Below are positions 5,918 through 49,401 of a DNA stretch of 64,000 nt, one piece after another. Positions within the stretch are counted from its first letter, which is position 1. Every line of letters begins with the position of its first letter. The notes below the pieces were generated by a model, which made no database searches, had not been told where the DNA came from, and saw only the letters and a program-made list of their open reading frames with translations. A program made the position numbers and the translations under genes. This DNA is from a virus: positions 28,584-92,583 of the IMG/VR virus record IMGVR_UViG_3300042922_000725; one strand, given 5' to 3'.

Positions 5918-5951
5918 TAAAAAATAAATAAAAATAAGGAGGAATATACAC

Positions 5952-6923: not shown

Positions 6924-6975
6924 TAAAATATAAACAAAAGTATATAAATAGAATTACAAATTTATTTATAGTAAT

Positions 6976-7005
6976 AAAAGAGCTATGCCGAAACATGGCT
7001 CTTTT
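6976..7005 (+). terminator. Intrinsic terminator
   Basis: aaaagagctatg-ccgaaa-catggctctttt. Confidence 0.7.
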
Positions 7006-7051
7006 CCATTTTTAATCCCTAATCCTTAATGTCGGAAGGAGAAAAATAAAA

Positions 7052-7996: not shown

Positions 7997-8129
7997 AATA
8001 CAACTTTATAGTGTTTTTGTTGAATTAATGTATAAAAATAATCATTATCATATAAATAATGCTTTAAATTAGAAAATACTAGAGACTTGCTTAATCTCTC
8101 TAATAATATAAAACATTAAAAGGAAAGAG

Positions 8130-9068: not shown

Positions 9069-10574
9069 ATGGCAAAGCCTCAAAAACAAGTAGAAATTGA
9101 TAATTTAAGTTCGGAATTGGCGCACATCTCGTCACAGAAAGCATATGTTAATAAAGATATGACGACGGCAGAAATTCAAGCAAAAGCTGATAGCCTTATT
9201 AACGGTGGAATATTAGAATTTATATATTCAAACGAGTATATAATTACAGAGGCTATTTTACTAAAGCCTTACACGACTGTAGAAGGTAATAATAGTAAAA
9301 TAACGGTAAATAGTGATATAACTGTTTTTGCTACATTGGGGTTGACTGAAACATATAGTAATATAATTATTCAAAATTTAGAAATTTGGGATAATGGTGT
9401 TTTGGCACGTAGTAAATATCACATTGATTTAAAAAATGCAGTTGTCTCAAGTATATTTAATGTAAAAATTTATAGTGGAACAATGTCTCCTAGTGATGTC
9501 GCAGGAATTAAATTTTCGAGAAATGAAGCAATTTCCACTTTTGTAAATACTGTAGAAAAATGTGTTTTAAATCAAGCCAGTATAGTCATGGAATCAAGTG
9601 ATTCATGGATAAAACATAATACGATTTGGGCATATAGTAGGAGTTTCGGCATTCATGTAGTTAAAACAAGTCAATTTATATCGGAAAATCAGATTGTTGG
9701 AAGCCCTGTGCATGGTGGCATATATGTAAATGATATAATAGACAATTTCAACATTGAACTATTGAAAATAGTAGATAATTATTTTGACGGTTCTTATGAT
9801 TTAATAGATTCGGGTATAGGCATCAAAGGGAATAAACTTGTTGAATGTTTAATAACCAATAATGATTTTTGGAGACAAATGGATGAAGCAATTATATTAA
9901 CATCTTCAAGCGATAATAAAATTATTGGTAATACTTTTAAAAATTGTAATAGACGTGATAATTCGAAATCAGATATAGTGATAAATGGTGGCGGATATAA
10001 CATAATTGCCTCAAATGGATTTACACGACAAGTTGTGCATACAAATAAAGGCAAAGCTATTAGCGGGACATCAACCAATAATAGTATATATGGCAATATG
10101 ATATATTTCGATAGTTATTATTTGGCACCGATAATTGATGTTGATGCTACAAATAAATTGCTAAACAATCTAAATAGCAATGTAGTTGACACAAAAAGAT
10201 TACCATCTAAGTCAATCTTAACATTTTGGCAAGATGGCGTAGCAGCTAGTGTAGGGTTAACATCTGTAAATACAAATGGAAGTGCATTAAAATCTTATAT
10301 ACTAGGTTACAATGCAAAGATTCTCGCAATAAGTTTAGTTGTTAGTATTCCAAGGACGGCAGGAACACTAGTGCTTACAGTTTACAAAAATGGTGTTTCT
10401 ACAGGAGAGCTTCTTACCTATAATACTGGTGTCTATACAATGAATAAAACATTTACAACTCCTATAACAATTACAACATCAGATGCTATTTCTTTAAGAT
10501 ATAATACAGACTCAAGTTGGCTGCCAACAACATTAAATTTCTCGGCTTCTTTGTTAATAGAAATTAGCGAGTAA
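9069..10574 (+). CDS. Tail spike/depolymerase with right-handed beta-helix (pectin-lyase-like)
   Basis: AEIQAKAD...GG.L..Y.I...I.L N-terminus; repeated I..N.F/I.GN parallel beta-helix rungs. Confidence 0.75.
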   Translation: MAKPQKQVEIDNLSSELAHISSQKAYVNKDMTTAEIQAKADSLINGGILEFIYSNEYIITEAILLKPYTTVEGNNSKITVNSDITVFATLGLTETYSNIIIQNLEIWDNGVLARSKYHIDLKNAVVSSIFNVKIYSGTMSPSDVAGIKFSRNEAISTFVNTVEKCVLNQASIVMESSDSWIKHNTIWAYSRSFGIHVVKTSQFISENQIVGSPVHGGIYVNDIIDNFNIELLKIVDNYFDGSYDLIDSGIGIKGNKLVECLITNNDFWRQMDEAIILTSSSDNKIIGNTFKNCNRRDNSKSDIVINGGGYNIIASNGFTRQVVHTNKGKAISGTSTNNSIYGNMIYFDSYYLAPIIDVDATNKLLNNLNSNVVDTKRLPSKSILTFWQDGVAASVGLTSVNTNGSALKSYILGYNAKILAISLVVSIPRTAGTLVLTVYKNGVSTGELLTYNTGVYTMNKTFTTPITITTSDAISLRYNTDSSWLPTTLNFSASLLIEISE

Positions 10575-10654: not shown

Positions 10655-11770
10655 TTAATTTCTTATGGTTACGAGATTTATTTTCATCATAAATATATTG
10701 GTTTTATAATTAATATATTTATGAAATTTGTTTAACAAGACCGATATAAAGATAATCATTGCTAAATAAATAAAAAAAGATACAAACAAGGGGAGTCTAA
10801 ATAATATAAAATCATAGCTATACATGAAAGCTCCATGTAATAAATAAATCTCAAAAGAAATATTCCCTAAAAAATAATAAAATATAGAAAATTTATTGCA
10901 ATTTGTTAATTTAATAAAAATAATTATGGCTATAATAGCAAAAAACATATTTATTGAATTACTAAATATATAGTTTGTTTTAGCATTAAGTTTAATTAGA
11001 ATTATTAACAATATAAGAAAAGAAAACATTAAATTAATTGATTTTATTTTTATTTTTTTTCGTAAAGTAAATAGCTGATTGAAAATTTTATCTTTATAAA
11101 ATGATAAGAATACTCCTAAAGTAAAATTAAAAGAATTATCCCTGAATAATTGTTTGTTTTTCAATATGCAAAATAATATTGTAGAAATGATAAATAATAT
11201 CAAAATATTATAGCTCTTTTTTATTTTTAAATTTATTGTGAAATAGAATATTAGATACCAGAACAACAAATAGAGTATGTACCAGTAATTTCTGTCAACT
11301 AAGTTTAGTCCAATTATTGATAATAAAATTGATTTTATTGAGTACTTATAATTTAATAAAATAGAATTTAACAAAATCCATATTATATTTAAAAGTAAAA
11401 AGGGTATATATATTCTAACTATTTTTTTATAAAAAAAATTTTTAATGCCATTAAGTCTTGCTGATTCGGTTAATCCATAACCGGATAAAAACAGAAATAT
11501 TGGAACCATAAAGGAACCAACTGTAGGGAAAATATAAATGGATTTATTGGAGTGTAAAGCATGTACAGCTAAATGTCCTACTACAATATTAAAAATGCAA
11601 AACCCCCTCAAAACTGTTGTAAATTCAATATTCATAGGTTTGTTATCTTTATATTTTTTTCTTGGAATAAAAGCTATAATATAAAACACAGAAATCAAAA
11701 GAATACTTGTTATTAAAGGATATCGATCAATAAGACTTATCTTGTCGTAATTTTTAAAAAGAAAATTCAT
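10655..11770 (-). CDS. Membrane O-acyltransferase (Acyl_transf_3/OafA family)
   Basis: LRGFCIF.IV.GH, V.IFLFLSGYGL, WYI, LG.ISFEIYLLH motifs; multi-pass membrane protein. Confidence 0.9.
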   Translation of the reverse strand: MNFLFKNYDKISLIDRYPLITSILLISVFYIIAFIPRKKYKDNKPMNIEFTTVLRGFCIFNIVVGHLAVHALHSNKSIYIFPTVGSFMVPIFLFLSGYGLTESARLNGIKNFFYKKIVRIYIPFLLLNIIWILLNSILLNYKYSIKSILLSIIGLNLVDRNYWYILYLLFWYLIFYFTINLKIKKSYNILILFIISTILFCILKNKQLFRDNSFNFTLGVFLSFYKDKIFNQLFTLRKKIKIKSINLMFSFLILLIILIKLNAKTNYIFSNSINMFFAIIAIIIFIKLTNCNKFSIFYYFLGNISFEIYLLHGAFMYSYDFILFRLPLFVSFFIYLAMIIFISVLLNKFHKYINYKTNIFMMKINLVTIRN

Positions 11771-11884
11771 TAAATTACCTCCTTAAACTTATACAATTAT
11801 AATAACATATGATATAATAAAAGTTAAGATTTCATAAAAATTAAAATATATAAATGCAATTAAATAAATTAATGAGGTGATAAT

Positions 11885-13240
11885 TTGCAGTTAAAATTGA
11901 AATATTTTTTATTATATGTTATGTTTATTCCACTAATTTTTTTAATAGGAATAACTTCGGTTTTACCCATAAAATACATTTTGTACACCATAACTACATT
12001 ATCAATGCCATTTGTTATTATCTTATTGTGTAAAAAAAATAATATATTAATAGCGTTAATGATATATTCGTTCATTATTGATTGTAGTGGTATGCTTATT
12101 AGCACAATGATTAAGCCTGCTTTATTTCTATTATTAATTTTAATATCAATATTTAGTATAAAAGAAAGAGTTGATAAAAACACAAAATTAATATTTTTGA
12201 TATTATCAATTGTAATACCGATGTATGGTTTTATTGTATCTATTGTAAGAGGTAATATGTTAAGATATGCTTTAAGTGATGCAAATGGATATGTATTTTT
12301 AATTACAGGATATTTTTTTATTTTATTAATTAAAAAAAATAATAAACTTAAAGATACAATTAAACTACATTTATTAATAGCTACATTAATTGTATCTTTA
12401 TTAACAATACTTATGTTTTCATTAGTTTATATTGGCAAACTAAACATAATTGATGTTAATTCAATTTTAAAAAATGAAGGTATAGGATTAGCTTCAATAG
12501 AAAATGGTAATTATAGAATTTTTTTAGGTGGACAGATATATGTTTTATTAACTGCGTTATATGTATTTAATAAATTAATTGATAATAAAACTAAAATAAA
12601 TAAAGGGCATATCGGGTTATTTTTTATATATGTGATTGCATTAATTTTATCAAATACTAGATCGTATTGGATAGCAATGTTTATTGGAATAGGTCTATCA
12701 ATATTATTGCAAAAATTTTCTATTAAAAAAATAGTAACAATAATATTGATATTTTTAGTGACTTGGGGGACAATTTTACGTTTGCCGCAGGAATATGTGA
12801 GCAATTCATTAGATAGAATACAAAGCATTACAGATTTCAGTAGAAATAATATTTCTAATTATAATAGAATACTTCAAAGTTCAGAGTTATTATATGAATT
12901 TAAATTGTATCCAATATTAGGAAAAGGATTTGGGGCAACCTTAACAGATGGTTATACTAGAAATATTGAAGCGCCATATACATTTGAGCTAAGTTATTTG
13001 GAGTTATTATATAAATTAGGGATAGTAGGAATGACATTATTTGTTTTGGCTTTAATGTTAGGATTAATAAAGTTTTATAATGTTAAAGACAATTTTATGA
13101 TATCATTTTTGGTATCTACTTATCTTAGTTTTCTTTTTGTAAGTTCAACAAATCCATTTATAGTTTCAGGGATGGGTATATTTTTACTAGCACTTTTATT
13201 TGTGTTTTCTGAAACAGTAGATTCTGTCAAACAACAATAG
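11885..13240 (+). CDS. O-antigen ligase/Wzy polymerase-like membrane protein
   Basis: About 12 TM helices; LSNTRSYW, S...R, PILGKGFG and ELSYLELLYKLGIVG motifs; TTG start with gaggtg RBS. Confidence 0.85.
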   Translation: MQLKLKYFLLYVMFIPLIFLIGITSVLPIKYILYTITTLSMPFVIILLCKKNNILIALMIYSFIIDCSGMLISTMIKPALFLLLILISIFSIKERVDKNTKLIFLILSIVIPMYGFIVSIVRGNMLRYALSDANGYVFLITGYFFILLIKKNNKLKDTIKLHLLIATLIVSLLTILMFSLVYIGKLNIIDVNSILKNEGIGLASIENGNYRIFLGGQIYVLLTALYVFNKLIDNKTKINKGHIGLFFIYVIALILSNTRSYWIAMFIGIGLSILLQKFSIKKIVTIILIFLVTWGTILRLPQEYVSNSLDRIQSITDFSRNNISNYNRILQSSELLYEFKLYPILGKGFGATLTDGYTRNIEAPYTFELSYLELLYKLGIVGMTLFVLALMLGLIKFYNVKDNFMISFLVSTYLSFLFVSSTNPFIVSGMGIFLLALLFVFSETVDSVKQQ

Positions 13241-13370
13241 GAAAAAATTACGAACTTAAACAAGCATAATAAAATCACGATTTTATACGGATTTTTCTGT
13301 ATAAACATACAATAAATAATGTATAATATTGCATAAAATATGTATAAATGTATATAAAATAAAAATAATT

Positions 13371-16474: not shown

Positions 16475-16727
16475 AGATATTTTTGTCTATGCGAGAATAA
16501 ATATTGATAAAGAGTTTGCAGTAGTATAAAAGATATATGTTTAGTATGCATTAAAAAATGTATAATGTATAAATGGGTTGGGCGGAGCAATCTGCCCTTT
16601 TGGGAAATGGTTTATAATTAAATATTGATAAAGATAAATGCTTTAATAATGTCTATCTAAGTGGTAGGTAATATTAAGGCATTTTTGTTGTGCCTAAAAA
16701 TATATAAAATGAGGAGATGTTTTTATT

Positions 16728-17873: not shown

Positions 17874-17883
17874 CAATTAAATA

Positions 17884-17949
17884 TTGACAAATATATAATA
17901 ATTTGATATATTGAATATAGAAAGTTTGTTATATCAAATTATTATATAT
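17884..17949 (+). promoter_or_regulatory. Sigma-A promoter overlapped by a perfect 20-bp inverted repeat
   Basis: TTGACA(17884)-17-TATATT; arms at 17891-17910 and 17930-17949. Confidence 0.75.
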
Positions 17950-28975: not shown

Positions 28976-29965
28976 ATGAAAGAGACAAATTTACAATTAA
29001 TTAAAGGTGGAAAAATAACAACAAAGGATGGACGAGAGTATACTAGATTAATGGGAGGATTTGGGGAAGGAAAACCGAGTTTAACCGTAAGGCAAATTTC
29101 CGAACTAATGGAAAAAGAATTAAAACACGTAAATGAAACAATTAATAATAACATCAATCATTTTGAGAAAAATATTCATTTAATTGACTTAAAAAACTCA
29201 GTCGATATAATCGACCCAGTTTTAGAGACATTAAAATCCTTGGGTTACAGTAAGCAATCTATATCGAACAGTAAAAACATTTATATACTTTCAGAATCAG
29301 GTTTCTTACTATATCTTAAGTTTGCTGAAGGCGATAAATCAGTAGATTTATATAAAGATTTTATTGAAGACTATTTCCAAACCAAAGCAGAAAATGAGAA
29401 GTTAAAAGTTGCGGTATCAGAAGAATTAGATTCTTTAGTCAATGAAAGAATAACAATATTAGGGAAAATGTTTTATGAACAAGATGAAAAAATAAAAATG
29501 GACTTATTCAATAGATGTGAAAGTCTAAATGATAGAATATCAAAACTTAATTTAGCATTAAAAACAGAAAGTCTTGAAAATGCTATTTTGAATCAAGCTA
29601 GATTAAAAGAAAGTAAAGCTGAATATGTTAATCAATCAGACTTTGGTGAAAGATTCAATAGAAAATTAGGAGCTAAAACAGTGGGTAAATTATTTCAAAT
29701 CGTTGGATTGGCAAAGAAAACTTACAATAGAACTACACCATATGAAAGATATGTACCGAAATATGCCGTAAATGTAGTTGATAATGAAATTGCTAAAAAT
29801 TATGATGTAGCTTATGTTTGGAATTATAACCTTGTAGTTGAGTTTATAGACAAGTGGTTGAAAAATAATGGAAAATATGACATCTTCTATTCAATCGTAA
29901 AAAAGGGTGAAATGATACAATATGTAAATACTTTATATGAAGAAACATTTTCTAAAGCAGTGTAA
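28976..29965 (+). CDS. ORF6N-domain antirepressor
   Basis: GGFGEGK..L...ISEL...KHVNE.IN.NI..F...IDLK...NIYILSE.G; own TTGACA-17-TATAAT promoter at about 28869. Confidence 0.8.
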   Translation: MKETNLQLIKGGKITTKDGREYTRLMGGFGEGKPSLTVRQISELMEKELKHVNETINNNINHFEKNIHLIDLKNSVDIIDPVLETLKSLGYSKQSISNSKNIYILSESGFLLYLKFAEGDKSVDLYKDFIEDYFQTKAENEKLKVAVSEELDSLVNERITILGKMFYEQDEKIKMDLFNRCESLNDRISKLNLALKTESLENAILNQARLKESKAEYVNQSDFGERFNRKLGAKTVGKLFQIVGLAKKTYNRTTPYERYVPKYAVNVVDNEIAKNYDVAYVWNYNLVVEFIDKWLKNNGKYDIFYSIVKKGEMIQYVNTLYEETFSKAV

Positions 29966-35769: not shown

Positions 35770-36684
35770 ATGGAAGAAAAATTTGAGCAATTAAAATGGG
35801 ACATAGTTTGTACAGGGAATGAAGTAATGATTTCAGATACTACTATTAAAATTCAAGAAATATATGGTGGATTTGGACAAGGTCAAAAGGTGTTAACAAT
35901 TCCACAAATAGCATTGTTACATGTTGATAATCCGAATGATAAAGAAGAAGTTAAAAAACGTATAAAAAGAATCAATGAACTTATAAATGATAATATTATT
36001 CTTGAAAGTGGGGATAAATATTTTGAATTTGGTATAGATATTATAGATTTAAAACGTGACGGTAGAAACGACCTGTTCACAAACCTTAAAAGAGCTGGAG
36101 TTTACACGCAAGCACAAATAGGAAACGCAACCAATTTGTATATATTATCCGAACAAGGATATTCTTTATTAATTAACTTAATGAAAGATACTCGTTCAAA
36201 AGTAATATATAAAAAAGTTATTCGAGACTATTTTAAATTAAAAGAGTATATATTAAGCAAAGAAGATACAGAACAATATATGCTTAGATTATTAGGTAAA
36301 AAAGAAAGAAAACGCACTACCGATACTATTAAATATTTTATAGACAATGGCTTTATAGAACATGACCCAAAAGACCCAAGAAGAAATGCTTATGCTAGAG
36401 AAACTAATTATATTTATAGATTATTGTTTGGAATGACAGCAAAAGAAATTGAAGCCTTTTTAGGATTAGAATTAAAACCGTATGATACTGTAAGAAACTA
36501 TTTATCTGCCAAAGATATTGATGATATTATGAGAATTGAAGGTAGAGTTGCTTATATGCAAGAAGATGACAAGAATTATAAACAAATACAAAATAGATTA
36601 AAAGAATTGTATTCGAGACCTAGAAGACCTCAAATGGCTGATAAAAGCATTTCACTAATAAAAAGACTTTCAGCAACAGAATAA
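35770..36684 (+). CDS. ORF6N-domain antirepressor (paralogue of 28976, different C-terminus)
   Basis: GGFGQGQK.L...IA.LH, INELIN.NI, IIDLK, NLYILSEQGY. Confidence 0.8.
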   Translation: MEEKFEQLKWDIVCTGNEVMISDTTIKIQEIYGGFGQGQKVLTIPQIALLHVDNPNDKEEVKKRIKRINELINDNIILESGDKYFEFGIDIIDLKRDGRNDLFTNLKRAGVYTQAQIGNATNLYILSEQGYSLLINLMKDTRSKVIYKKVIRDYFKLKEYILSKEDTEQYMLRLLGKKERKRTTDTIKYFIDNGFIEHDPKDPRRNAYARETNYIYRLLFGMTAKEIEAFLGLELKPYDTVRNYLSAKDIDDIMRIEGRVAYMQEDDKNYKQIQNRLKELYSRPRRPQMADKSISLIKRLSATE

Positions 36685-37979: not shown

Positions 37980-40184
37980 ATGGCAGAATTATATAATTAT
38001 TACTATACACAAAGATTCATAAATTCTACAACAGGTGCGCCAGAAAGTCGTTTACAATCAAATGAACCACACAAAGTTCTTGATTACAAAATTACACTAG
38101 ATACTATACCCGACCAATATTATAGAACTTCCGTGGTGTGTTCTACAGTTCCAAGTATGTATGAAATACCTTTACAAGCCATGATAACAGCATCAAATCA
38201 GTACAAGGTGGATTATTATTCTGGAAGTGGATTTATATATTTTCATTCCTCAATGGAGGGTAAAGCTGTAACAGTTACATATCGTGGTAAGGGATGGATA
38301 ATAGTTGACATTAGTAGAATGGGAACACTAGTGGAAGGTCAAACAGTGCCTCAAACTATAAAAGAGATGATTGATGATTTTAGTGAAGCTGAAGCTCAAA
38401 GAGTTTTAAATGAGGAACAAAGACAAGAAGATGAAGATATAAGAAAAGGAAACGAAATAATACGTACAGCTAACGATGCAACACGACAAGCGGTAATAAA
38501 TGCATTCAAAGTAAATGAACCATATAATAATACTCATTCATATATGCCTTTAAACAAAGTATCATACATGGGTAATTTTTATCAAAACCAAATAGCATGT
38601 AGCGGAATAGCTCCAGACCCATTAGGTTCATCAACTAATTGGTTACTAATTGCACAAAGAGGTAACGACGGACTAGCTTCATTTAGAGAAACAACAATAA
38701 CCGTTTCGTCTAACGGAACAACTCATATAGTGCATGGACTAGATTTTGACCCACTTCATGATGCATTGAAAGTGACAGGAGAATATGGACAAAAATTATT
38801 TAAAACCGAGCAATATACACTAAATGCTGATAATTTATCTATAGATTTGGTAGGATGGACAGCGGATGCCGGATTTAAGTTTAACTTTGAATTATTAAAA
38901 GGAATGAACGATGCAACTCTACAAGAATTAGTCGATGAAGCTGTAATTGCTAAAACTGAATTACAAGCTGTATTAGACGATGCAGAAGAGTTAATTGAAT
39001 TAGGAAATACGGTTGCAGGGCATACAACACAGATAGCGAGTATAAATGATGAAATAGGTGATATTAATACAGCTATAGAAAATATTGAAAGCGATGTAAC
39101 ATCAATAAGTGGTGGACTTACATCTCACTTAAACGATACTATTTCACATGCGGAAACTTCAACAAGAACTCTTTATGTAGATATTACAAACGGGAATAAT
39201 AGCAACAGCGGAACACAAGCAGCACCTTTTCAAACTTTAACATATGCCTTGACAAAAATAAAAAAGAATTTATATTCAGATGTAAAGATAAGAATACTTC
39301 AAGGCGATTATACTTCTGAGGGTGTTGTAAATATAAATAATTTTAAAAGTGCATACTTAATTATAACCGCGTTTGATGGAACAAACGATGTGTCCACTTT
39401 AAGTGATAGCTACAACTTTTTCAAGTTTAGAGTAGATAGTTGTGATAAAATACAAATACAAGGTTTAAAAATTAATTGGAATCAAGCAAATGATTACGGT
39501 ATTTTTACAACAAATACCCGGTTCGGCTATTACATTGGAATAAAAAACACTGACACAACTGCACTAAATAATGGATTTGGCGTTACAGTTAACTCAGAAG
39601 TATATTTAGATGGTTGCTTATGTTCCGGCAAAGATACGGTTGTTAGTTGTAATTTTGGTAGTAGAGTTGTATCTGCAAATTGGGATTCGGGGTCAACTGG
39701 AAACAGAGTTGGTTTGTGGGCGCATGGAGGTTCGATAATATTTAAAGACGGAAATCAACCCGTTGGAACAGTTTATAATGATAATGTAGATCATGGCGGT
39801 AAAATAGTAGAAGAATCTGGTCAAAACAGAACTAGCCAAACGTTTTTTACAGCAAATGCAACTACAACTGGATATATTGATATCCCTATAAACTTACCAA
39901 TATCACCATCATGGATTAAAATTGATTCAATACTGACAGGGTCAAAAGAAATGTCATGGGGACAATGGAGCAAAAACAAAGGTACGCCGTCTCAAAGCTG
40001 TGTATTTAGAAACAATGCCGACACAGTTGGTGGCAGCTACGACATGGCTCAATTGAATGATGGAGGAGGAAACGTTGTACAATATCAAGTTAATTTAGCA
40101 TATCCTAGCGTAATACGATTAAACATTACTAAGACTGGTTCTCCAACAGGAACTATATATTTAAATGTATTGTGCGGTTGTTAA
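37980..40184 (+). CDS. Tail fibre/receptor-binding protein
   Basis: Y.VDY..G..YF N-terminus; YN....Y.PL..V.Y.G..Y module; LYVD..NGN.SN.GT..APF.T motif; beta-helix-like C-terminus. Confidence 0.75.
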   Translation: MAELYNYYYTQRFINSTTGAPESRLQSNEPHKVLDYKITLDTIPDQYYRTSVVCSTVPSMYEIPLQAMITASNQYKVDYYSGSGFIYFHSSMEGKAVTVTYRGKGWIIVDISRMGTLVEGQTVPQTIKEMIDDFSEAEAQRVLNEEQRQEDEDIRKGNEIIRTANDATRQAVINAFKVNEPYNNTHSYMPLNKVSYMGNFYQNQIACSGIAPDPLGSSTNWLLIAQRGNDGLASFRETTITVSSNGTTHIVHGLDFDPLHDALKVTGEYGQKLFKTEQYTLNADNLSIDLVGWTADAGFKFNFELLKGMNDATLQELVDEAVIAKTELQAVLDDAEELIELGNTVAGHTTQIASINDEIGDINTAIENIESDVTSISGGLTSHLNDTISHAETSTRTLYVDITNGNNSNSGTQAAPFQTLTYALTKIKKNLYSDVKIRILQGDYTSEGVVNINNFKSAYLIITAFDGTNDVSTLSDSYNFFKFRVDSCDKIQIQGLKINWNQANDYGIFTTNTRFGYYIGIKNTDTTALNNGFGVTVNSEVYLDGCLCSGKDTVVSCNFGSRVVSANWDSGSTGNRVGLWAHGGSIIFKDGNQPVGTVYNDNVDHGGKIVEESGQNRTSQTFFTANATTTGYIDIPINLPISPSWIKIDSILTGSKEMSWGQWSKNKGTPSQSCVFRNNADTVGGSYDMAQLNDGGGNVVQYQVNLAYPSVIRLNITKTGSPTGTIYLNVLCGC

Positions 40185-40333
40185 TTACTTAAAGTTAATA
40201 AAATCAATTTTTTATAGTAAAAAACTGAATATAAACAATACAAAACTTGCAGTATTTTAATTATTTAAGTGACTATTTAGTTAATATTGCAAGTTTTATT
40301 ATACTTGGAATTAAAACAGAAGGAGGAATTTTT

Positions 40334-41950
40334 ATGGGAGAACCCAAATTAACTGAAAAAATTAAAAGCCTTGATTCGCAATTGGCAGAAATAGATAACA
40401 AATTTAATAGCACTATTATTAATGTCAAATACCCACCACTAGGACTAACGCCAGCAGTAGGCGACGGAGTAACGGACGATTGGTCTGCTCTGCAAGCAAT
40501 TTTCAACTATGCTTATGATAATGACTGTAGAATATATTTACCAGCAGGTAATTACCTTATTTCAAAACCATTAATTGTTTATAGCTATTCTGACGATTAC
40601 GGCAACCAAATATTACTTATTGATGGTGCTGGGCAAGATGTATCTGTAATAGTAAAAAATAATAATACTACATTAGGCACAGGCGAATATGCTACTATTG
40701 ATGCAATTATGATTATCGCAAATCAGTACACCAAAAACGGGCAAGCTATAACAAATATTTGGTCGCATGAAAGTATTACTGAAAAAGGAGTTTTGTCAAA
40801 TTTTTCATTGAAAAGTACGGCAACAACACCTGTATCGTATGGTATTTATTCATATGGATTATTCTTTTTTAAGTTCTTTGGAATGAGTTTTCTTGATATG
40901 AATACCGCTTTTGCGACAACAAGATATTGCAGTTTCAACATATTTGAAAAACTTGAAGTAAAGCAATGTGCGATTGGATTTAATATTTGGAGCGACGCAA
41001 GCGGTGCAACAACACTTAGATTTTTGGATATTCACTTAAATGGAGTAACACAATATGGCTATAAGATTAAAGGACATGCTATGTTTGAGGATTGTTCAAA
41101 TGATGGAGGAAGTTTAGTTGCGTATTACTTTCTTTGTAGCAGAGCAACACTAATCAATTGTCACTCTGAAAGTCCAGCTTGTTCACAAGTTATTTATGCT
41201 GATGGTAACACTACATGGGGTCCCTCAACCATTACTTTGCTTAATTGTGGGATCATGACTCCTTTAAGTACAACAAATCCAACATTCCAGTTAAATAATA
41301 TGACAACCTTACATTGCATAGATTTAAAGATTACAACAACGGTTGTCGGTGGTCTTCCAACAACACCAGCCGGAAAACTATATCAAGCGTCTGCAAATAG
41401 TAGAATGATATTTGACAACTTAAAATTTATAGGCGCGCAATACGCAACAAAAGTTAATTACAGTATCAGTGAAAATGAAAAAGTTATTGTATCTGACAGA
41501 AACCGTTTGAATACACCAAAACATACTTATATGGCATATGTTCCAGGTGCGGTTCCGTCCGGAGAATATAACACATCAACTGTGACTAATGACGGTGAAA
41601 ATCTTATTTTTACAATGAGTGGAGAAGCCGGGAAAGGTTATCAAGGTATTGCATTTGAAACTGGATTTAAGATGGATAGTTACTCTAGGCTATACATGAA
41701 AACCTCTATTGACTTCACGAATGCAAGTGGAAACAGTGCATTACTTAGAATATTAACCAGTACTAGAAGTGGTGTTAATACTTCTGCAACAGTATACAAT
41801 GATGTGATTAAAACATTATCATTTACGGCTGACATAACAGACTACGAGTACTGGATTGATATATCTGATTTATACGGTACATATTATGCAGAAGTAGTAT
41901 TGACGAATATTGGTACTATGACTATTAAAGAAATAGCGTTATTAAAGTAA
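40334..41950 (+). CDS. Tail spike/depolymerase (Pectate_lyase_3-type beta-helix)
   Basis: INVKYP...AVGDGVTDDWSALQA...IYLPAGNYLISKPL; aggagg RBS before ATG 40334. Confidence 0.85.
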   Translation: MGEPKLTEKIKSLDSQLAEIDNKFNSTIINVKYPPLGLTPAVGDGVTDDWSALQAIFNYAYDNDCRIYLPAGNYLISKPLIVYSYSDDYGNQILLIDGAGQDVSVIVKNNNTTLGTGEYATIDAIMIIANQYTKNGQAITNIWSHESITEKGVLSNFSLKSTATTPVSYGIYSYGLFFFKFFGMSFLDMNTAFATTRYCSFNIFEKLEVKQCAIGFNIWSDASGATTLRFLDIHLNGVTQYGYKIKGHAMFEDCSNDGGSLVAYYFLCSRATLINCHSESPACSQVIYADGNTTWGPSTITLLNCGIMTPLSTTNPTFQLNNMTTLHCIDLKITTTVVGGLPTTPAGKLYQASANSRMIFDNLKFIGAQYATKVNYSISENEKVIVSDRNRLNTPKHTYMAYVPGAVPSGEYNTSTVTNDGENLIFTMSGEAGKGYQGIAFETGFKMDSYSRLYMKTSIDFTNASGNSALLRILTSTRSGVNTSATVYNDVIKTLSFTADITDYEYWIDISDLYGTYYAEVVLTNIGTMTIKEIALLK

Positions 41951-41985
41951 GTATTAATTAACTATCGGAAAAATTACGAACTTAA
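40375..41985. mobile_element. Putative recombinase-exchanged cassette 2 (tail spike)
   Basis: Left ttcgcaatt-ggcaga (40375-40389); right ggaaa-aattacgaacttaa (41967-41985), sharing 17 identical bp with the right end of cassette 1. Confidence 0.6.
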
Positions 41986-42177
41986 TAAATTCAATTACAA
42001 GACCGCCGAGGTCTTTTTTATTTTATAATAAATTTATTATTGTGTTTTTAGAGAAAATATTTGTGACATATTACAAAAATGTAGTGAAATATTATATGTT
42101 TTGTAGGTTATATTTGTGAGAAGTTACAATGAAGGTTTTTTGGATTGTGACTTCTTTTTTAAATTAGGAGGGATTTT

Positions 42178-42375
42178 ATGAATTTAAATAAATTATCTGA
42201 AAATGAAATAGAGGAATTAAAAAATATAATATTTTGGGCAATCTCTGAAGGATATAATACAAATTTGACGACTAAACTTTTAGTAAACAAACTTGCTATA
42301 ACAAAAGAAGATGTAGAATATATGGAATATCTTGATGAGAATTGTAATGTTGGTGAAAAATTAACTGATAAATAA
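42178..42375 (+). CDS. Hypothetical protein
   Basis: aggagg RBS; 65 aa. Confidence 0.5.
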   Translation: MNLNKLSENEIEELKNIIFWAISEGYNTNLTTKLLVNKLAITKEDVEYMEYLDENCNVGEKLTDK

Positions 42376-42391
42376 TCAGGAGGTGTTATAA

Positions 42392-43426
42392 ATGGGAAAA
42401 CCAATATTCGAAATGGATGTAATTAATGGATTGAGTTCAGAGTTAACTAATCTTTTGGTTAAACCATCGGGATACTTATATGTAGCAAAGAGTGGAGACG
42501 ACACGAGTGGTGATGGGAGTGCAAGCAAACCGTTTTTAACAATAGGTAAGGCTATTACAACGGCAACAAGTGGAACAACAATATTTATATATCCTGGAAC
42601 TTATACAGAAAGCTTAACATTAAAAGCTGGAGTAAACTTAACATCTTCTGCGAGATATTCGGTATATGTAAGAGGAAATGTAATCGCAAATTTTACAGGA
42701 GCGGTATTCGCTGAGAAAATTGTATTTCAAAGTAGTTCTGGAATAGTAATGAATTTTATTGGAACTGGAGTTCAAAACTTTCAAGCTTTAATGTGCAGCT
42801 TCGATTCTTTAAGTGGAAATAATTCAAATGCTATAGATTATTCAAATACAAATTCTTCAAGTAGATTTTTCTTATATGATAGTATTGCAAGTGTGGCTAC
42901 TTCCACAGGTGGAGCAAAAGTATTCTCAAGTACTTCTGGTTCTTTTGGTTCAGTTGTGTTTGACAAAACAACTTGTCAAATTACTGACAATGCAAATAAT
43001 ATATGTTTAAATTTATTAGGTGGAATTAATTATACTCATACTCAAGACCAAATAAAAGGTCAAGTTGTTGTTGGTGGAATTGCCAATTGTACCATTGCAA
43101 TATTAACTATGCAAACAAATTCTGTACCAGTCTTAGTCACTAATTCAACTGGAACAACAACGGTTTCTGAAGTAATAGTTTCTACAACTTCAACACCTGC
43201 TTTTAGTGGTGCAGGAATTTTAGTTTATATGGCTTTGATATATGCAAGCACAGGAGTGGGGGGTGCTTCAACTCTAACTGGTGGACTAGGGGCAATTCCA
43301 CTTGCAATGGCACCAATTAGATTAAGAGCAGGTTCTTTAACTACTGGTAAGAATGATGGGACGTTTGAATATGATGGGAACCATCTTTACTTTACAATTG
43401 GAACAACTAGAAACACTATTGTTTAA
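42392..43426 (+). CDS. Beta-helix fibre/spike protein (DUF1565-like)
   Basis: LYVAKSGDDTSGDGSASKPFLTI.KA...G..I.I.PGTY.E; C-terminal GTFEYDG.HLYFT. Confidence 0.75.
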   Translation: MGKPIFEMDVINGLSSELTNLLVKPSGYLYVAKSGDDTSGDGSASKPFLTIGKAITTATSGTTIFIYPGTYTESLTLKAGVNLTSSARYSVYVRGNVIANFTGAVFAEKIVFQSSSGIVMNFIGTGVQNFQALMCSFDSLSGNNSNAIDYSNTNSSSRFFLYDSIASVATSTGGAKVFSSTSGSFGSVVFDKTTCQITDNANNICLNLLGGINYTHTQDQIKGQVVVGGIANCTIAILTMQTNSVPVLVTNSTGTTTVSEVIVSTTSTPAFSGAGILVYMALIYASTGVGGASTLTGGLGAIPLAMAPIRLRAGSLTTGKNDGTFEYDGNHLYFTIGTTRNTIV

Positions 43427-43475
43427 AAATAACTAGATATTGACAATAAAATTGAAACAAGAAGGGAATGATTTT

Positions 43476-43808
43476 ATGAGCAATGTATGTATGACTAATT
43501 TTATATTTTTAAAAAATGCTACAGACGTAACCGATGGACAAATATTAACAATTGCATCTTGCTACAATTCAGTTTCAATTGAGGTTACAGGTACAGGGAC
43601 AAGTAAAGTTGTTTTTGAAGCAAGTGTAACTGGAGAAAACTGGATTCCAATAATAGGTGCGGATTTGACCACGTTGGATACACTTTCTGAAACAACTGAT
43701 AAAGGTAAAATATTTTTATTTAGTTTAACGGGTTTATATAAGTTTAGATGTAGAGTTGATAGTTATAGTAATGGAACAGTAACTTGTATAGGAAGAGTGG
43801 TGAATTAA
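43476..43808 (+). CDS. Small beta-sandwich virion protein
   Basis: V.IEVTG.....V.FEAS..G.NW...L.GL..FR.RV; in the fibre cluster. Confidence 0.55.
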   Translation: MSNVCMTNFIFLKNATDVTDGQILTIASCYNSVSIEVTGTGTSKVVFEASVTGENWIPIIGADLTTLDTLSETTDKGKIFLFSLTGLYKFRCRVDSYSNGTVTCIGRVVN

Positions 43809-44614
43809 ATTTGGATATTATCTCTTTGGGAGTGGCTAAAAAAAGCAGAAAAATAACATTAAAGCATAATACAAACGTTCCTGTTGGAGGAATAGACATT
43901 GATACAGAAATTAAAGTTATGGATACAAATGATTTGTTCGAGAAGATGTTAATAAAAAGTTTAGCACCAAAAACAAAACTTGAATTTTATGATTCTGCTG
44001 ATGAAATTATAGACTCTACCTTAATAAGAACAGCAGGAGTTCCATTAACAATAAAAACAATAAAAGCCACATCGGAAAAATCTACAAGTTCTGATATTAT
44101 TGTGAGTATGGAAACATATTCAACACCTTCGATAAGTGATTTTGACAGGTTAGATTATAACATAAATGAAAGTGAAAATATATGGACTTTTAATGATATT
44201 ACAATTGACCAAAAGGCTACTTTTTCAATAAAATCAAATAATAATAAAGGTTTAATTGGCAAATGCAATACGACATTTAACTTTGTAAATTGTTCTTATG
44301 CCGGTATTGTGCCTAGTACAACAACAATATCTACAATAACTGAAGCAGAAATAAAAAGTGGGAAGATTATATTGCAGCAAAAGGGAGATATAAATGACTC
44401 ATTTATTGGAAATGGAAAAATGTTTTTTGCATATGAATCTACTTGGGGAAATGCAAAATCTATAGTCGATGTGTTAAATAATGTGAACATTATAAATGCA
44501 TTTGAAAAAAAAGAAATAGATATAACCAATGCTAGTGGAGTTGTAAAATATGTGGTTTATTTGGCAAACGTAAGAGGTAACTACAATGAAAGTGAAGTAA
44601 ATTTAAAGTTTTAA
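43784..44614 (+). CDS. Tail-associated structural protein (probable start TTG 43811)
   Basis: DIISLG.AKK N-terminus; FAYESTWG...SI.D motif. Confidence 0.5.
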   Translation: MYRKSGELNLDIISLGVAKKSRKITLKHNTNVPVGGIDIDTEIKVMDTNDLFEKMLIKSLAPKTKLEFYDSADEIIDSTLIRTAGVPLTIKTIKATSEKSTSSDIIVSMETYSTPSISDFDRLDYNINESENIWTFNDITIDQKATFSIKSNNNKGLIGKCNTTFNFVNCSYAGIVPSTTTISTITEAEIKSGKIILQQKGDINDSFIGNGKMFFAYESTWGNAKSIVDVLNNVNIINAFEKKEIDITNASGVVKYVVYLANVRGNYNESEVNLKF

Positions 44615-44639
44615 AACTTAAATTTAAGGGGTAATCATA

Positions 44640-45197
44640 ATGAAAAAAATAAAAAATTATATAAAAGAATATATTAAAAAAATTGTATTATCTTTACTTC
44701 ATGATTTTATTGAAAATGAAATAAAGAAAGAAATAAACGAAAACATAAAAAGTTATTTAAAACTCGAAGCCGATAATGACAATACAAGTAAAATTATTGA
44801 AGAAATAAATGATATTAAAGAAATATTGAAATCAAAAGAAAATAATGAACAATATATTTCTCTTCCAAATGAAAATATTATTAATAATGGCAATAAAAAA
44901 GAAATAAAGAATGGAACTATATCTTATGATTATTCGGGTAATCAAGTAATTGAAAGAGTTTATTTAGATGGAGAATGGCTAATACCTAATAATAACATGA
45001 AAGAAGTACAAATAGTTAAAAATTATGTGAATATAGATAAGTTTGAAAGAGAATTAGATAAAGATTTGGTGTTTTCTAGTGACAAATCAATTGTTATTAC
45101 GGATAGCTTAAATCATGATGATAAATACAAAATAGTTATTAAGAGTTCAAACCTGACTTTAGAAAAAGTTAAAGATGTTAAAAAGGAGGGATTCTAA
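44640..45197 (+). CDS. Hypothetical protein
   Basis: In the fibre operon, tightly coupled to the next gene. Confidence 0.5.
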   Translation: MKKIKNYIKEYIKKIVLSLLHDFIENEIKKEINENIKSYLKLEADNDNTSKIIEEINDIKEILKSKENNEQYISLPNENIINNGNKKEIKNGTISYDYSGNQVIERVYLDGEWLIPNNNMKEVQIVKNYVNIDKFERELDKDLVFSSDKSIVITDSLNHDDKYKIVIKSSNLTLEKVKDVKKEGF

Positions 45198-45199
45198 AG

Positions 45200-46648
45200 A
45201 TGAGTGACTTTTTAAAGGGAAATCCCTTAATAGTACCTAATTATTACCTTGGAGATGTTCCTATGGACACCAAAACAAAAGCTTCTTCAGTTTCAGAAGT
45301 TTTAACAACTCTTGAAAAAGAAAATAGATATACTGGATTAACAATATATTGCGATTTAGAAAAACAATTTTATTGTTTTAAGAATGGAATTGAAGATTCT
45401 GATTTTATAAAAATAGGTGGTTCAACTTCAATAATTAAAGTTTCAAACTATGCTTCATTGCCAACTGAAAATCAAGATATTACTGCGATTTATATGACAG
45501 AAGATACAATGATTGAATATATGTGGAATGGTATTGCATGGACTAATTTTAAAAATATAGCAGACAATATATCATTTAATAATAATCCAAATGGAACTCC
45601 AATATATTCCACTGATTATGGAACAGTACAAAAAGTATTAGAAGAAAATAAAAAAGAAGTAGACTTAAAGGCTGACAAAACTTATGTTGACACTGAATTG
45701 GATAAAAAACCAATTATAGATGATGTTAGTTCAAGTATTTCATCAGTATATTCGTCAAATAAAGTTGATGAGTTAAATAACACTTTATTAGGATATATTG
45801 TAATAAAAGCTGAAATCAATGATGAAGAAGTAAGTGGTGGAATGACATATAGTTCAAGTAAATTGGAAAATGATAAATATTTAATAAATACTGATTTAAA
45901 TAACAAAGTAGATAAAGTTATAAACAAAAGTTTAATTGATGATACAGAAATAATAAGATTACAAGGAATTACTACAGGAGCAAATAAAGTTGAAGACTCT
46001 GCTGTAAATGGAAATATTAAAATCAATGGTGTTGAAAGCGTTGTATATACTCATCCTGGAACAGGTACAAATCCACATGGAACTACCAAGAGTGATATAG
46101 GTTTGGGAAACTGTGATAATACTAGTGATGTAAATAAACCAATAAGTAATGCTACACAACAAGCAATTAATAATAATTCTGTTCCTACAGGAAGTGTATT
46201 TTATACTATATCTATGACAGCTCCTAGTGGATATATAATAGGTGACGGAAGTAGTATTTCGAAAACTACATATTCGGCATTATATGCAGTTATTGGTGGC
46301 AGATTTGGAGAAACTTCAACTACATTTAATTTACCTGATTTAAGAGGTACTTTTATAAGAGGTAATAATCCAAGTGCGACAGGATATGATTCAAACAGAA
46401 CATTGGGAAGTTTGCAACAAGACGCATTCCAAGGACATACACATACGTTAAATCCTAAGGTTGGTACGAGAGCAAGTGGTGGAGATAGATATTTTTGGTC
46501 AGATGACCTCTCGTCAGTTAGTCGCGCAAAACAAACCGAATCCGAACAACTGGCAGTACCAATTACATTAGAAGGTTATGGCGTGGCTAAAATTGCTAAT
46601 GAGACACGTCCTGTCAATATTTCATTTACACCAATTATAAAACTATAA
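45200..46648 (+). CDS. Tail fibre protein with phage tail-collar domain
   Basis: NPHGTTKSDIGLGNCDNTSD.NKPIS.ATQ; P.G.....APSGY...DGS..S...YS.LYA.IG..FNLPDLRG.FIRG; ETRPVNI. Confidence 0.85.
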   Translation: MSDFLKGNPLIVPNYYLGDVPMDTKTKASSVSEVLTTLEKENRYTGLTIYCDLEKQFYCFKNGIEDSDFIKIGGSTSIIKVSNYASLPTENQDITAIYMTEDTMIEYMWNGIAWTNFKNIADNISFNNNPNGTPIYSTDYGTVQKVLEENKKEVDLKADKTYVDTELDKKPIIDDVSSSISSVYSSNKVDELNNTLLGYIVIKAEINDEEVSGGMTYSSSKLENDKYLINTDLNNKVDKVINKSLIDDTEIIRLQGITTGANKVEDSAVNGNIKINGVESVVYTHPGTGTNPHGTTKSDIGLGNCDNTSDVNKPISNATQQAINNNSVPTGSVFYTISMTAPSGYIIGDGSSISKTTYSALYAVIGGRFGETSTTFNLPDLRGTFIRGNNPSATGYDSNRTLGSLQQDAFQGHTHTLNPKVGTRASGGDRYFWSDDLSSVSRAKQTESEQLAVPITLEGYGVAKIANETRPVNISFTPIIKL

Positions 46649-46711
46649 AATATAATTATGCTCAACATGTAATACTAGGAAAGCTAATATTAATAACAGG
46701 AGGTCTTATAA

Positions 46712-47062
46712 ATGCCAAATTCAACAATTACACTTTGTAAAGTTTTTGACAACATTAGTTCTACAGGAGAGTGTATTATACCCATAAGTTCAAATGGTTC
46801 ATGTATGCGTATTGAAGCTAGAACAGATGGGGTGGCAACTTTTGAAGTTTCAACTAGTATGACAAGCAATCAAGATAATAATTATTCTTTAGTTGGAATA
46901 TTGATAAATTTAGTAAATATTTCGATAAATAATCCAGTAACAATAACATCTACCGATGGTCTTGTAGCATATTCTCTTGATTTAGGCTGTGTAAGTTATG
47001 TAAAAATAAAATTGACAAATAATACTGGAAATACAACAATAACTTGTAAAGTTTCAGATTAA
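46712..47062 (+). CDS. Small beta-sandwich virion protein (possibly related to 43476)
   Basis: Similar size and pattern; aggagg RBS. Confidence 0.45.
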   Translation: MPNSTITLCKVFDNISSTGECIIPISSNGSCMRIEARTDGVATFEVSTSMTSNQDNNYSLVGILINLVNISINNPVTITSTDGLVAYSLDLGCVSYVKIKLTNNTGNTTITCKVSD

Positions 47063-47092
47063 TTGAAAAATAATAGAAAGGAATGATATCAT

Positions 47093-47878
47093 ATGGGAAG
47101 TTTAAGCCTAAATACTGTTATTGCATTGATTAATGAATTGATTAAGAAAAATGTTAAAAATGTTGGAGATATAAAAATGACAGGAAAAACTATAGCTGAT
47201 AACGGATGGTTAATTTGTGATGGTTCGGCTATATCTAGAACTCAATATTCTGAATTATTTAGTGCAATTGGAACTGTATTTGGGACAGGAAATGGAAGTT
47301 CTACATTTAATATTCCTGATTTTAGGTCAAGAGTTCCATTAGGAGCTGGTCAAGGTGAGATAAATTTAAGTTTTGCTTCAACTGATGTAAACATTTCAAC
47401 AAATGTTATTACAATTCCATCAAACAAATCAATTTATACGGGTACACCTATAAAGTTAACATCGTTAGGCACTGCTCCAACAGGACTAACTAGCGGAACA
47501 ACATATTATGCAGTTAAATTAACAGATACAACAATTTCATTAGCAACAACAGTTTCAAATGCTGTAGCAAATCCGGCTGCTGTGATAGATATTACTGGAC
47601 AAGGAAGTGGTTTAAATAAATTAACTATAACATATTCTAATCGAAGTATTGGTGAAATTGGAGGCGAGGAAAACCATAGTCAAAATATCTCCGAACTTGT
47701 CAAGCATACACACATATATAACGATACATATGGAGTTCAAGACTTAGAAGGAGTGTTTAACAATGCTAATGCCTGTGATGAAATTAGCAGAGATGAAACA
47801 ACTTCTGTAACTGGTGGAAGCGTACCATTTAATGTTATGAATCCGTATTTAGGAATTAATTTCATGATTAAATATTAA
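47093..47878 (+). CDS. Tail-collar domain fibre protein
   Basis: GWLICDGSAISRTQYSELFSAIG...GSSTFNIPDFR; GGEE.H; PYLGINFMIKY. Confidence 0.85.
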   Translation: MGSLSLNTVIALINELIKKNVKNVGDIKMTGKTIADNGWLICDGSAISRTQYSELFSAIGTVFGTGNGSSTFNIPDFRSRVPLGAGQGEINLSFASTDVNISTNVITIPSNKSIYTGTPIKLTSLGTAPTGLTSGTTYYAVKLTDTTISLATTVSNAVANPAAVIDITGQGSGLNKLTITYSNRSIGEIGGEENHSQNISELVKHTHIYNDTYGVQDLEGVFNNANACDEISRDETTSVTGGSVPFNVMNPYLGINFMIKY

Positions 47879-47949
47879 TAATTATTTATTTAGAGTGGGA
47901 TTGAATTTGACCCACCCTATTAATATGTAATTAAATATTGATAAAATAA

Positions 47950-48159: not shown

Positions 48160-48221
48160 TTATACACCACCTCATGTAAATTATACTATAATTTGTACAT
48201 TTGTACAAGAGTTCAAATATA

Positions 48222-48235
48222 CGAACGAACGTTCT
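48222..48235. promoter_or_regulatory. LexA (Cheo/SOS) box candidate
   Basis: cGAAC-gaac-GTTCt matches the Firmicute GAAC-N4-GTTC consensus, in a divergent intergenic region. Confidence 0.55.
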
Positions 48236-48354
48236 CTAAATTTACATTTATTAGATTCGTTAGGCTAGAGACATATTTTAAAAAGAAAAAGGTTTATGGA
48301 AGATATTAAAGCTATTAGAAACTTATATTAATAATCAAGGAGGACATACATATT

Positions 48355-49401
48355 ATGGCTAAAATAGTAAGAGTTAAATATTTTACAGAAGAAAAGAAAA
48401 AATTAATCAGTGAATCAAATAAAAAACTTTATGATAAATACCTTAAATCAAATATAATAAAAAACAGAGAAGTTGAAGATACAACTTATGGTGTTTATAC
48501 TAATAATATGACACACTTCATGATATTTTTGGCTGAAAATTATGATAATGTTGGGCTTTACGATGAAGATTTTATAAAAAATGCAGTAGATATAATGGAA
48601 GATTACATATCTTTTTGTCAAGATACTTTGCAGAATAATAAAAAAACTATCAACAACAAAATAGCTGCGGCATCGTCGTTTTATGCATGGTCAATGAAAA
48701 GAAAATATATAGGATTTCATCCCTTTGATAAGAGACTTGACAGAATGAAAGGAGCAAAAGACGAAAAAATTATTAATTCTTATTTTTTAACAGAAGAAGA
48801 AATAAATAAAATAAAAGAAGGATTGGAAGATTCTAAGAGTTTCGATATTCAAGATAAAATATTGTTTTATTTGGCTATCGATAGTGCTAATAGAATAGGA
48901 GCATTGAGTAAGCTGACCCTTTCTAGCATGGATATAGATGAAATGGTTTTTAAAGACATAAGGGAAAAACGTGGAAAACGTGTTGAAGTGGTATTTGAAG
49001 AAAAAACTCGTGAGTTAATTGAAGATTGGCTTTATCAAAGAAAAGATAATTATGATAAAATGGAAGTTGACTCTTTATTTATAGCAAATTATAAAACATG
49101 GATACCTATGGGAAAAAGTTCTTTACAAGAAAGAATCAGAAAAATAGGAATGATTATTGGATTAGAAGATTTTCATGCTCACTGCACAAGAAAATCGGCT
49201 ATAAATTTAATAGTTGAAAAGACAGGAGATATCTCGTTAGGTGCCGAAATTGCGAATCATGAAAGTGTTGAGACAACTCGTCAAAGTTATGTTAAACCAA
49301 GGTCAAAATCTCAAACTAGAAATAAGATAAAAGAGTTAATAAAAGAGAAAGACTTGGCAAAGAAACAAATAGAAGATAATGAAAAACAAGAGGAGTTATA
49401 A
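48355..49401 (+). CDS. Tyrosine recombinase (XerC/D-like)
   Basis: Catalytic R (SANRIG), K (EKRGK), HxxR (HCTRKS), H (ANHES) and Y (RQSYVK). Confidence 0.9.
   Translation: MAKIVRVKYFTEEKKKLISESNKKLYDKYLKSNIIKNREVEDTTYGVYTNNMTHFMIFLAENYDNVGLYDEDFIKNAVDIMEDYISFCQDTLQNNKKTINNKIAAASSFYAWSMKRKYIGFHPFDKRLDRMKGAKDEKIINSYFLTEEEINKIKEGLEDSKSFDIQDKILFYLAIDSANRIGALSKLTLSSMDIDEMVFKDIREKRGKRVEVVFEEKTRELIEDWLYQRKDNYDKMEVDSLFIANYKTWIPMGKSSLQERIRKIGMIIGLEDFHAHCTRKSAINLIVEKTGDISLGAEIANHESVETTRQSYVKPRSKSQTRNKIKELIKEKDLAKKQIEDNEKQEEL

Follow-up and report, generated by a model that had tools for sequence, protein, structure and literature searches.

We consider it probable, at roughly 60%, that positions 40375-41985 of the window, the stretch of 64,000 nucleotides of viral DNA analysed here, form one of two receptor-binding cassettes, each flanked on both sides by a copy of a conserved quasi-palindromic junction element. 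We refer to the left copy of the element, which lies within coding sequence, as J, and to the right copy, which is non-coding, as J'. The element looks like a natural plug-in site for host-range change. The window comprises bases 28584-92583 of a 92.6-kb IMG/VR virus contig, and the whole record is estimated to be 52% complete and has a G+C content of ~27%. Searches for close relatives of the window among GenBank phages (megablast, tblastn) returned none, and neither did IMG/VR contigs with the endolysin or a 734-aa tail protein as query. The best matches of the tail proteins are ~27% identical and come from Bacillus and Lactococcus phages, and Rfam and tRNA scans gave no matches. When J and J' were compared with cultured phages by BLAST, only chance-level matches and no cultured carrier were found, and full-text searches of the literature returned no description of the element.

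The left and right sites are versions of one quasi-palindrome of ~24-32 bp with arms of 9-13 nt. The consensus of the aligned copies consists of an arm TTCGCAAT(T/A), a 6-nt spacer starting with GG and an inverted arm. J lies in frame at the junction of stalk and beta-helix, where it encodes S-Q-L-A-E/D or, in its fuller reading, S-Q-L-A-E/D-I-A-I; in L152 and L200 (loci outside the record are given by L numbers) it is a near-perfect palindrome. J' is found 0-26 nt past the stop codon that ends the module, ahead of a terminator or of the next gene. The upstream arm of J is well kept and extends for ~13 nt through the preceding V/L-S/N codons, and the well-kept part of J' is its downstream arm together with a short tail. 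Thus in both sites the arms on the backbone side are better kept than those on the cargo side, which explains why an earlier note on this DNA described the boundaries as inverted half-sites. Our alignments correct this point, as each boundary is a full, locally degenerate copy of the same quasi-palindrome and not one part of a split site. The arms are complementary at 7-9 of 9 positions in J of L152 and L200 and in J' of L014, L153, L200, L187 and L151, and the inner arms of both J' copies in the window are poor. The spacers of J and J' differ from each other; the J spacer is constant and the J' spacers vary among phages.

The cargo of cassette 2, the cassette at 40375-41985, is the gene of spike 2 (40334..41950, plus strand), a pectate-lyase-like beta-helix protein of 538 aa (PF12708, E 8e-10). 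Its true start is the ATG at 40334, which has an AGGAGG box ahead of it as ribosome-binding site. J occupies 40375..40398 on the plus strand, in the codons S Q L A E I D N, with an arm at 40375-40383, the spacer at 40384-40389 and a weaker inner arm at 40390-40398. The left block was read correctly in the earlier note: 40375-40392 is ttcgcaatt-ggcaga-aat and falls in spike 2 codons 15-20 (S Q L A E I). This J is the record's top match to the 24-nt consensus, with a score of 18 (scores of at least 16 are expected 0.3 times), and has 16-17 nt identical to J of L014 and of L133. J' of this cassette (41958..41985, plus strand) is made up of a degenerate inner arm at 41958-41966, a 5-nt spacer at 41967-41971, an outer arm at 41972-41980 and a tail at 41981-41985. 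It holds the 17-mer shared with 13243-13259, and the right end proposed before, GG followed by this 17-mer at 41967-41985, does start 16 nt past the stop codon ending at 41950. Both the position and the make-up of this site are those of J' in L014, L153, L147, L200 and others. The 17-mer ends 13 nt ahead of the intrinsic terminator that closes the spike 2 unit (41999..42023, plus strand; a stem-loop and then a T run), and spike 2 has an upstream intergenic region and a terminator of its own. Upstream of spike 2 lies the gene of the 734-aa tail protein (37980..40184, plus strand), which matches phrog_11315 only. A part of this protein, at 38472-38615, is similar to the N-terminal stalk to which the L133 spike is fused (tblastx, 42% over 48 aa). 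The otherwise unrelated L133 contig also carries an ortholog of spike 2, which is 54% identical and is the only good spike 2 homolog for which DNA was compared.

Cassette 1 has as its first gene that of spike 1 (9069..10574, plus strand), a right-handed beta-helix protein of 501 aa (PF13229, NosD). Its J at 9105..9133 (plus strand, codons N L S S E L A H I S) is weak and has a consensus score of 14, which is the background level; the outer arm at 9105-9118 is an inverted copy of 13246-13259 at 13 of 14 nt. The cassette further contains an Acyltransferase_3 gene (10655..11770, minus strand; PF01757, E 2.5e-28) and a gene for a Wzy-like polysaccharide polymerase/ligase (11885..13240, plus strand; PF04932, E 1.2e-10). 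J' at 13231..13259 (plus strand) overlaps the stop codon of the latter, is the second best match in the record with a score of 16 and has 25 nt identical to J' of L014. The next gene after the cassette, at 13476, encodes an amidase/glucosaminidase endolysin. The cargoes of the two cassettes had been described as unlike, and the two spikes are indeed unrelated (BLASTP E = 1.3; different Pfam families).

The 17-mer said to be common to the right ends of both cassettes is exact at 13243-13259 and 41969-41985; these are its only two copies in the 92.6-kb record, both on the plus strand and each preceded by GG. Taken within this AT-rich genome alone, the repeat makes a weak case against chance. The record contains 26 direct repeats that are exact over 17 nt or more, and the 9-mer half-site, with 8 matches against 3.7 expected, is not significantly enriched. 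A 14-mer with one free base has exactly three matches against 0.35 expected, and the third of these lies in the leader of spike 1 as an inverted copy. One might therefore read the boundaries as a coincidence of an AT-rich genome with a common protein motif, and the frequency of SQLA[DE] in tail fibres would fit such a reading. We find it hardly credible in the light of what is seen in other phages.

J-J' pairs are present in no fewer than 11 IMG/VR contigs, which have hardly any genes in common with the window. The carriers are L014, both L133 spikes, L153, L151, L172, L189, L200, L147, L207 and L171/L222, the last two being the same contig, and these phages range from 29 to 55% GC. When IMG/VR was scanned with the 17-mer, 18 loci were retrieved, and almost all of these are chance matches in coding sequence; L014 is the exception. 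This contig was retrieved through the right 17-mer alone and has no other similarity to the window (tblastx). Its right site is intergenic and stands directly ahead of a terminator, and 3.2 kb upstream, in N-S-Q-L-A-E codons of a 1094-aa protein, it has a left block matching that of spike 2. The L133 contig, of 99 kb, shares with this genome only the spike, a DNA ligase and the 48-aa piece of the 734-aa protein; it has two tandem spikes, both with the same codons at the stalk/beta-helix junction and with related sequence straight past the stop codon. A scan with the left 15-mer gave 63 IMG/VR loci, about half of which are in-frame SQLA[DE] in tail-fibre-like ORFs. A second copy of the element follows 0-26 nt past the stop of the ORF that contains J, or of one accessory ORF, in L151, L153, L172, L189, L200, L207, L014 and both L133 spikes. 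The reciprocal scan with the J' pattern gave 27 loci. All five intergenic matches among them (L147, L153, L200, L207, L222) have an upstream J with identical codons, and the remaining matches all lie within long ORFs and have no upstream SQLA motif. The placement of J' at stop codons cannot be due to chance, because the background of such 24-mers is only ~2e-5 per position.

Some searches returned nothing further. A search for loci related to a single junction peptide returned only the query itself, and the SQLA[DE] motif was present in none of 71 endolysin-neighbour loci, which we took as an unbiased sample of junctions. The right-end pattern, searched in 596 Gb of genomes and JGI metagenomes, occurs there only as in-frame coding chance matches of the G-K-x-Y-E-L type, which also counts against coincidence as the source of the pairs. 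That reading is contradicted by the L014 pair, with its 25-nt identity and the left block in the same contig, by more than ten further J-J' pairs at stop codons and by the replacement of cargo in related phages. The boundaries are then not a product of chance, as had been claimed, and they recur around unrelated cargo at two loci here and in at least 11 other contigs; the right element is kept at cassette ends across these contigs.

The replacement of cargo is seen most directly in pairs of similar phages. L152 and L147 are 97-98% identical up to J and ~25% identical straight past it, and a sharp loss of identity across the 24-nt site was also observed in ten other pairs with near-identical stalks. 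The backbone of L147, L200 and L189 is shared and runs from the tape measure through Dit, stalk and J...J' to a virion protein. The 1.5 kb upstream of J are 66-87% identical among these three and the 1.5 kb downstream of J' are 67-79% identical, and the 1.5-2.8 kb between J and J' yield no nucleotide HSP. The pattern in these alignments is one of cassette replacement exactly between J and J'. Both signs by which modular exchange of receptor-binding proteins is recognised, a sharp breakpoint and homology that resumes downstream, are present. The cargoes are a pectate-lyase-type body with an O-acetyltransferase in L200, an esterase/lipase-type body in L189 and a fibre-type ORF in L147. The L200 cargo parallels cassette 1 of the window, so that J' closes a unit which can contain a spike together with genes that modify the target polysaccharide. 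The idea of a reusable cassette system with acceptor slots thus holds in so far as cargo is replaced wholesale between the two sites in syntenic relatives; the support does not extend to slots served by a recombinase.

The element is constrained at the nucleotide level. Synonymous positions of the left site do not vary freely, as a check suggested in the earlier note had asked. TCG makes up 3.9% of the serine codons and TTG 13.8% of the leucine codons in this genome, the share of TCG within the spikes is 7-13%, and the J copies that were reached through J' all use TCG and TTG. Most J sites were retrieved by an exact 15-mer, so that their first 15 nt are uninformative on conservation. Over positions 16-24, which were not used in selection, the J inner arm agrees with the complemented outer arm at 5.95 of 9 positions, against 2.77 of 9 in same-frame controls from the same ORFs (P < 5e-6; none of 200,000 resamplings reached the observed sum), a statistic that shared ancestry of the protein motif may have inflated. 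Of 22 families, 19 have a G at position 22 of J, despite differences in the residue encoded there (A, S, T, P, V and others). In eight J' copies found through the right arm, and hence unselected in the inner arm, the inner arm matches the consensus at 5-9 of 9 positions. We show by these comparisons that the dyad symmetry of the element exceeds what coding needs.

A possible function of this symmetry lies in regulation or in RNA. The dyad could be the operator of a helix-turn-helix dimer, or a hairpin in the mRNA that makes the ribosome pause at the domain junction J and protects or ends the transcript at J'; its place at the ends of modules would in that case follow simply from where genes start and end. 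J' always follows a stop codon and precedes a terminator or the next ribosome-binding site, and the J' of L200 and the J of L152 have favourable folds (-7 and -8 kcal/mol, z -3.9), both of which would suit such a role. The four window sites and the L014 site, however, fold no better than shuffled sequences, there is no Rfam match, and the aligned J and J' copies contain no compensatory changes for arm mismatches. Uncompensated mismatches and window sites that do not fold argue for recognition of the sequence rather than for a selected hairpin. With respect to an operator, the inverted repeat of the Aca2 operator in the anti-CRISPR promoter of a Pectobacterium phage has the same half-site, with 12 nt identical to the J' arm and tail (PMC9410881), but its half-sites abut with no 6-nt spacer, and it is a look-alike of J' only. 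Regulation would furthermore leave unexplained why homology breaks exactly at J and J' in related phages and why the coding and the non-coding copies have a like sequence. We therefore regard a purely regulatory element as improbable.

It could also be asked whether J' is a molecular fossil. J' would then be what remains, in decayed form, of the start (codons E-I-A-I-N-V-K) of an ancestral pectate-lyase body, after recombination at J had brought in a new body that has a stop codon of its own, and only descent would have kept it. The arm and tail of J' align with the sequence through which coding continues in a full J such as that of L152, with a few changes that create stop codons, and the triplet after CAA is TAG in three J' copies and TTG in J. 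A neutral relic would not, however, remain recognisable between unrelated cargo before it and unrelated DNA after it in phages of 29-55% GC, where J' is nevertheless kept, and no remnant of an old body is seen past any J'. This origin seems to us very improbable.

How would the cassettes move? We suggest that co-resident phage genomes may trade modules through a pair of crossovers, of which the one in J would keep the reading frame and the other would fall in J'. These crossovers may be short-homology recombination or may be catalysed by a site-specific enzyme. The likeness of the sites could be maintained by frequent crossing-over at them, by a dimeric protein that binds the dyad, or by both. 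The cargo would be the part of the virion that chooses which surface polysaccharide is attacked, sometimes accompanied by genes that modify the polysaccharide of the host. An identity of 24 nt is at the lower limit for RecA-type recombination, which counts against exchange as the explanation. Moreover, selection for exchangeability is weak, and conservation of the element may therefore serve another, direct function.

Another possibility is site-specific exchange, with J and J' as core sites of a tyrosine recombinase that is either encoded by the phage or a Xer-type enzyme of the host. Exchanges of J with J and of J' with J' would then replace the cargo and keep it in frame, with no deletion or inversion, and the differing spacers of J and J' would bar recombination between J and J'. 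Core sites of tyrosine recombinases consist of inverted arms around a spacer, and the element has their layout (inverted arms of 9-13 bp, spacer of 6-8 bp), with 9-13 nt inverted arms and a 6-nt spacer in the consensus and degenerate copies in the window. Conserved arms and spacer on the backbone side, next to variable and still complementary arms on the cargo side, are as expected for a crossover in the spacer, and a dyad kept without compensatory changes suggests a dimeric protein and not a hairpin. A tyrosine recombinase gene is located 6.4 kb downstream of cassette 2 (48355..49401, plus strand; PF00589, E 1e-19). It is the only recombinase found in the record, with XerA and XerC-like enzymes as nearest solved relatives, and is a candidate actor only; neither a serine recombinase (PF00239) nor TnpB was found in the record. 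Against its involvement, no J-like site adjoins this gene and the palindromes near it are unlike J. PF00589 was found in three of five other contigs and has no match in the L014 contig, which is 77% complete, or in the L200 contig, and no gene family is common to more than three of the 13 J-J' loci. The differences among J' spacers would block exchange between the phages that carry them, and neither solo sites nor circle junctions nor alternative arrangements were seen. We consider site-specific exchange unlikely. In a broader form, also doubtful, J and J' would be heterospecific sites of a host- or phage-encoded recombinase or nuclease that swaps modules, together with their modifying genes, in frame between unrelated phages.

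Several other kinds of element were considered and rejected. In the case of an inversion switch, either right end, once reverse-complemented, gives Ser-stop when read in the leader frame; there is also neither an invertase nor a reverse-oriented ORF abutting J'. A transposon with terminal inverted repeats lacks a target-site duplication outside the arms and a transposase. A coding remnant in the 17-mer does not agree with the differing lengths of the A run in the two copies, which put them in different frames. And if the direct 17-mers were the att sites of an element between them, the integrase would lie outside the interval and essential tail genes inside.

Among systems already described, the SP6-like coliphages (K1-5, K1E, K5, SP6) are close in outline, as their tail-spike genes of unrelated specificity reportedly lie between short conserved sequences and have apparently been swapped horizontally as units. 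Those flanks are intergenic, of promoter or terminator type and confined to one phage genus, whereas here the left boundary is in frame, both boundaries are copies of one quasi-palindrome and the element occurs across unrelated phage groups. In T-even phages, short coding motifs (His boxes and glycine-rich motifs of gp37-gp38) mark the breakpoints of adhesin-domain exchange and are conserved as protein. The cassettes resemble these distal tail-fibre genes in having a short conserved coding motif at the breakpoints of specificity domains, but for the T-even motifs we know of no description of dyad symmetry, constraint on synonymous sites or a non-coding copy past the stop codon.

Crossover sites within coding sequence at a constant/variable junction are found in the invertible segments of Mu (Gin/gix), P1 (Cin/cix) and p15B (Min) and in the R64 shufflon (Rci/sfx). 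Our loci are similar in that a second, inverted site is present at the far end of the segment. They differ in that there is no serine invertase and no alternative ORF of opposite orientation, and the cargo is replaced and not flipped. Imperfect palindromes of arm, spacer and arm also delimit unrelated cargo in integrons (attI/attC) and in the Xer-dependent dif modules of Acinetobacter plasmids. Unlike in integrons, no IntI-type integrase adjoins the loci, there is no long attC-like hairpin and translation runs through the left site. Only single cassettes and no arrays of them were found, and no neighbour gene is conserved among the 13 loci. In the phages P22, Sf6 and epsilon15 a tailspike that degrades polysaccharide is linked to seroconversion genes. 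This is reminiscent of the spikes found here beside polysaccharide modifiers, namely the acyltransferase and Wzy genes in cassette 1 and the O-acetyltransferase in L200, but we know of no shared boundary element that brackets spike and conversion genes together in P22, Sf6 or epsilon15.

Receptor-binding modules determine the host range of tailed phages and are known to move between phages. The element would give module exchange a defined address, in the form of a portable site of 24-32 bp at both ends of the module. It would keep the reading frame at the left joint and move the spike together with the seroconversion genes as a single unit. Moreover, constraint at the nucleotide level is rarely so clear within a structural gene. 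Engineered cassette exchange uses heterospecific lox sites, and if J and J' were heterospecific sites they would be a natural counterpart of recombinase-mediated cassette exchange, acting on host range. If the element works as a plug-in site, it would offer a natural design rule for depolymerase swaps in engineered phages of Gram-positive-type hosts.

Genes of polysaccharide-modifying type lie beside a spike in the window. Two of them (10655-13240, 23-25% G+C), one for an acyltransferase_3 and one for a Wzy-like polymerase, are placed between spike 1 and its J', the non-coding copy of the quasi-palindrome that follows the stop codon of a cargo module. The pair looks like a seroconversion module that travels together with spike 1. 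An O-acetyltransferase is found at the equivalent position in L200, a locus from another IMG/VR contig.

Spike 2 is followed by three further genes of receptor-binding type, a DUF1565 beta-helix protein (42392-43426) and two tail-collar fibres (45200-46648 and 47093-47878), and 37980-47878 therefore forms one large host-recognition cluster. Neither J, the coding copy of the quasi-palindrome, nor J' is present in any of these three downstream genes.

Other repeats and palindromes occur in the window. Among the longest exact repeats is a 17-18-mer rich in A and T, with AATTAAATATTGATAAA as its type, which recurs in intergenic DNA (16615-16632, 17874-17891 and 47928-47945, with additional copies upstream of the window) and may be a promoter or operator motif. 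The tyrosine recombinase gene is preceded, at 48190-48240, by a GAACG-AA-CGTTC palindrome adjoining ATATACGAAC; the palindrome might represent an operator or a recombinase site, and its likeness to the J' arm is only loose.

Two genes ahead of spike 1, within the virion module, the window also encodes a free-standing HNH homing endonuclease (7052-7996; phrog_559, E 7e-67). Three regulator genes of the Rha/Ant/Bro type (16728-17873, 28976-29965 and 35770-36684) are dispersed among genes for lysis, replication and the tail, and the tape-measure gene is immediately followed by one of them. The NAD-dependent DNA ligase gene, with LigA domains (61688-63670), is one of only three regions that the window shares with the contig of L133, at about 45% amino acid identity.

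The placement of J differs between loci. In L147 the stalk ORF (6423-6809) ends 28 codons past J, and an ORF of its own, of 587 amino acids (6854-8617), encodes the cargo, so that J can be found near the end of a stalk gene as well as within a fused gene or, as in spike 2 of the window, 14 codons past the start. In L194 (at 4185-4390), a tail-fibre ORF has four tandem 60-nt repeats that each include the left arm of J and the spacer, encoding S-Q-L-A-Q/D.

A third site in L014 (9708-9731) has a strong left-type arm that is inverted relative to the J' arm. It lies where a 70-aa ORF ends, 1.1 kb downstream of J'. Together with J' this site encloses three small genes, one of which, by eye, resembles a pyrimidine-dimer glycosylase. 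The J-bearing protein of L014 (1094 amino acids, 4566-7850) comes after portal and head-morphogenesis genes and not after tail genes, and J-J' cassettes may therefore not be restricted to tail spikes.
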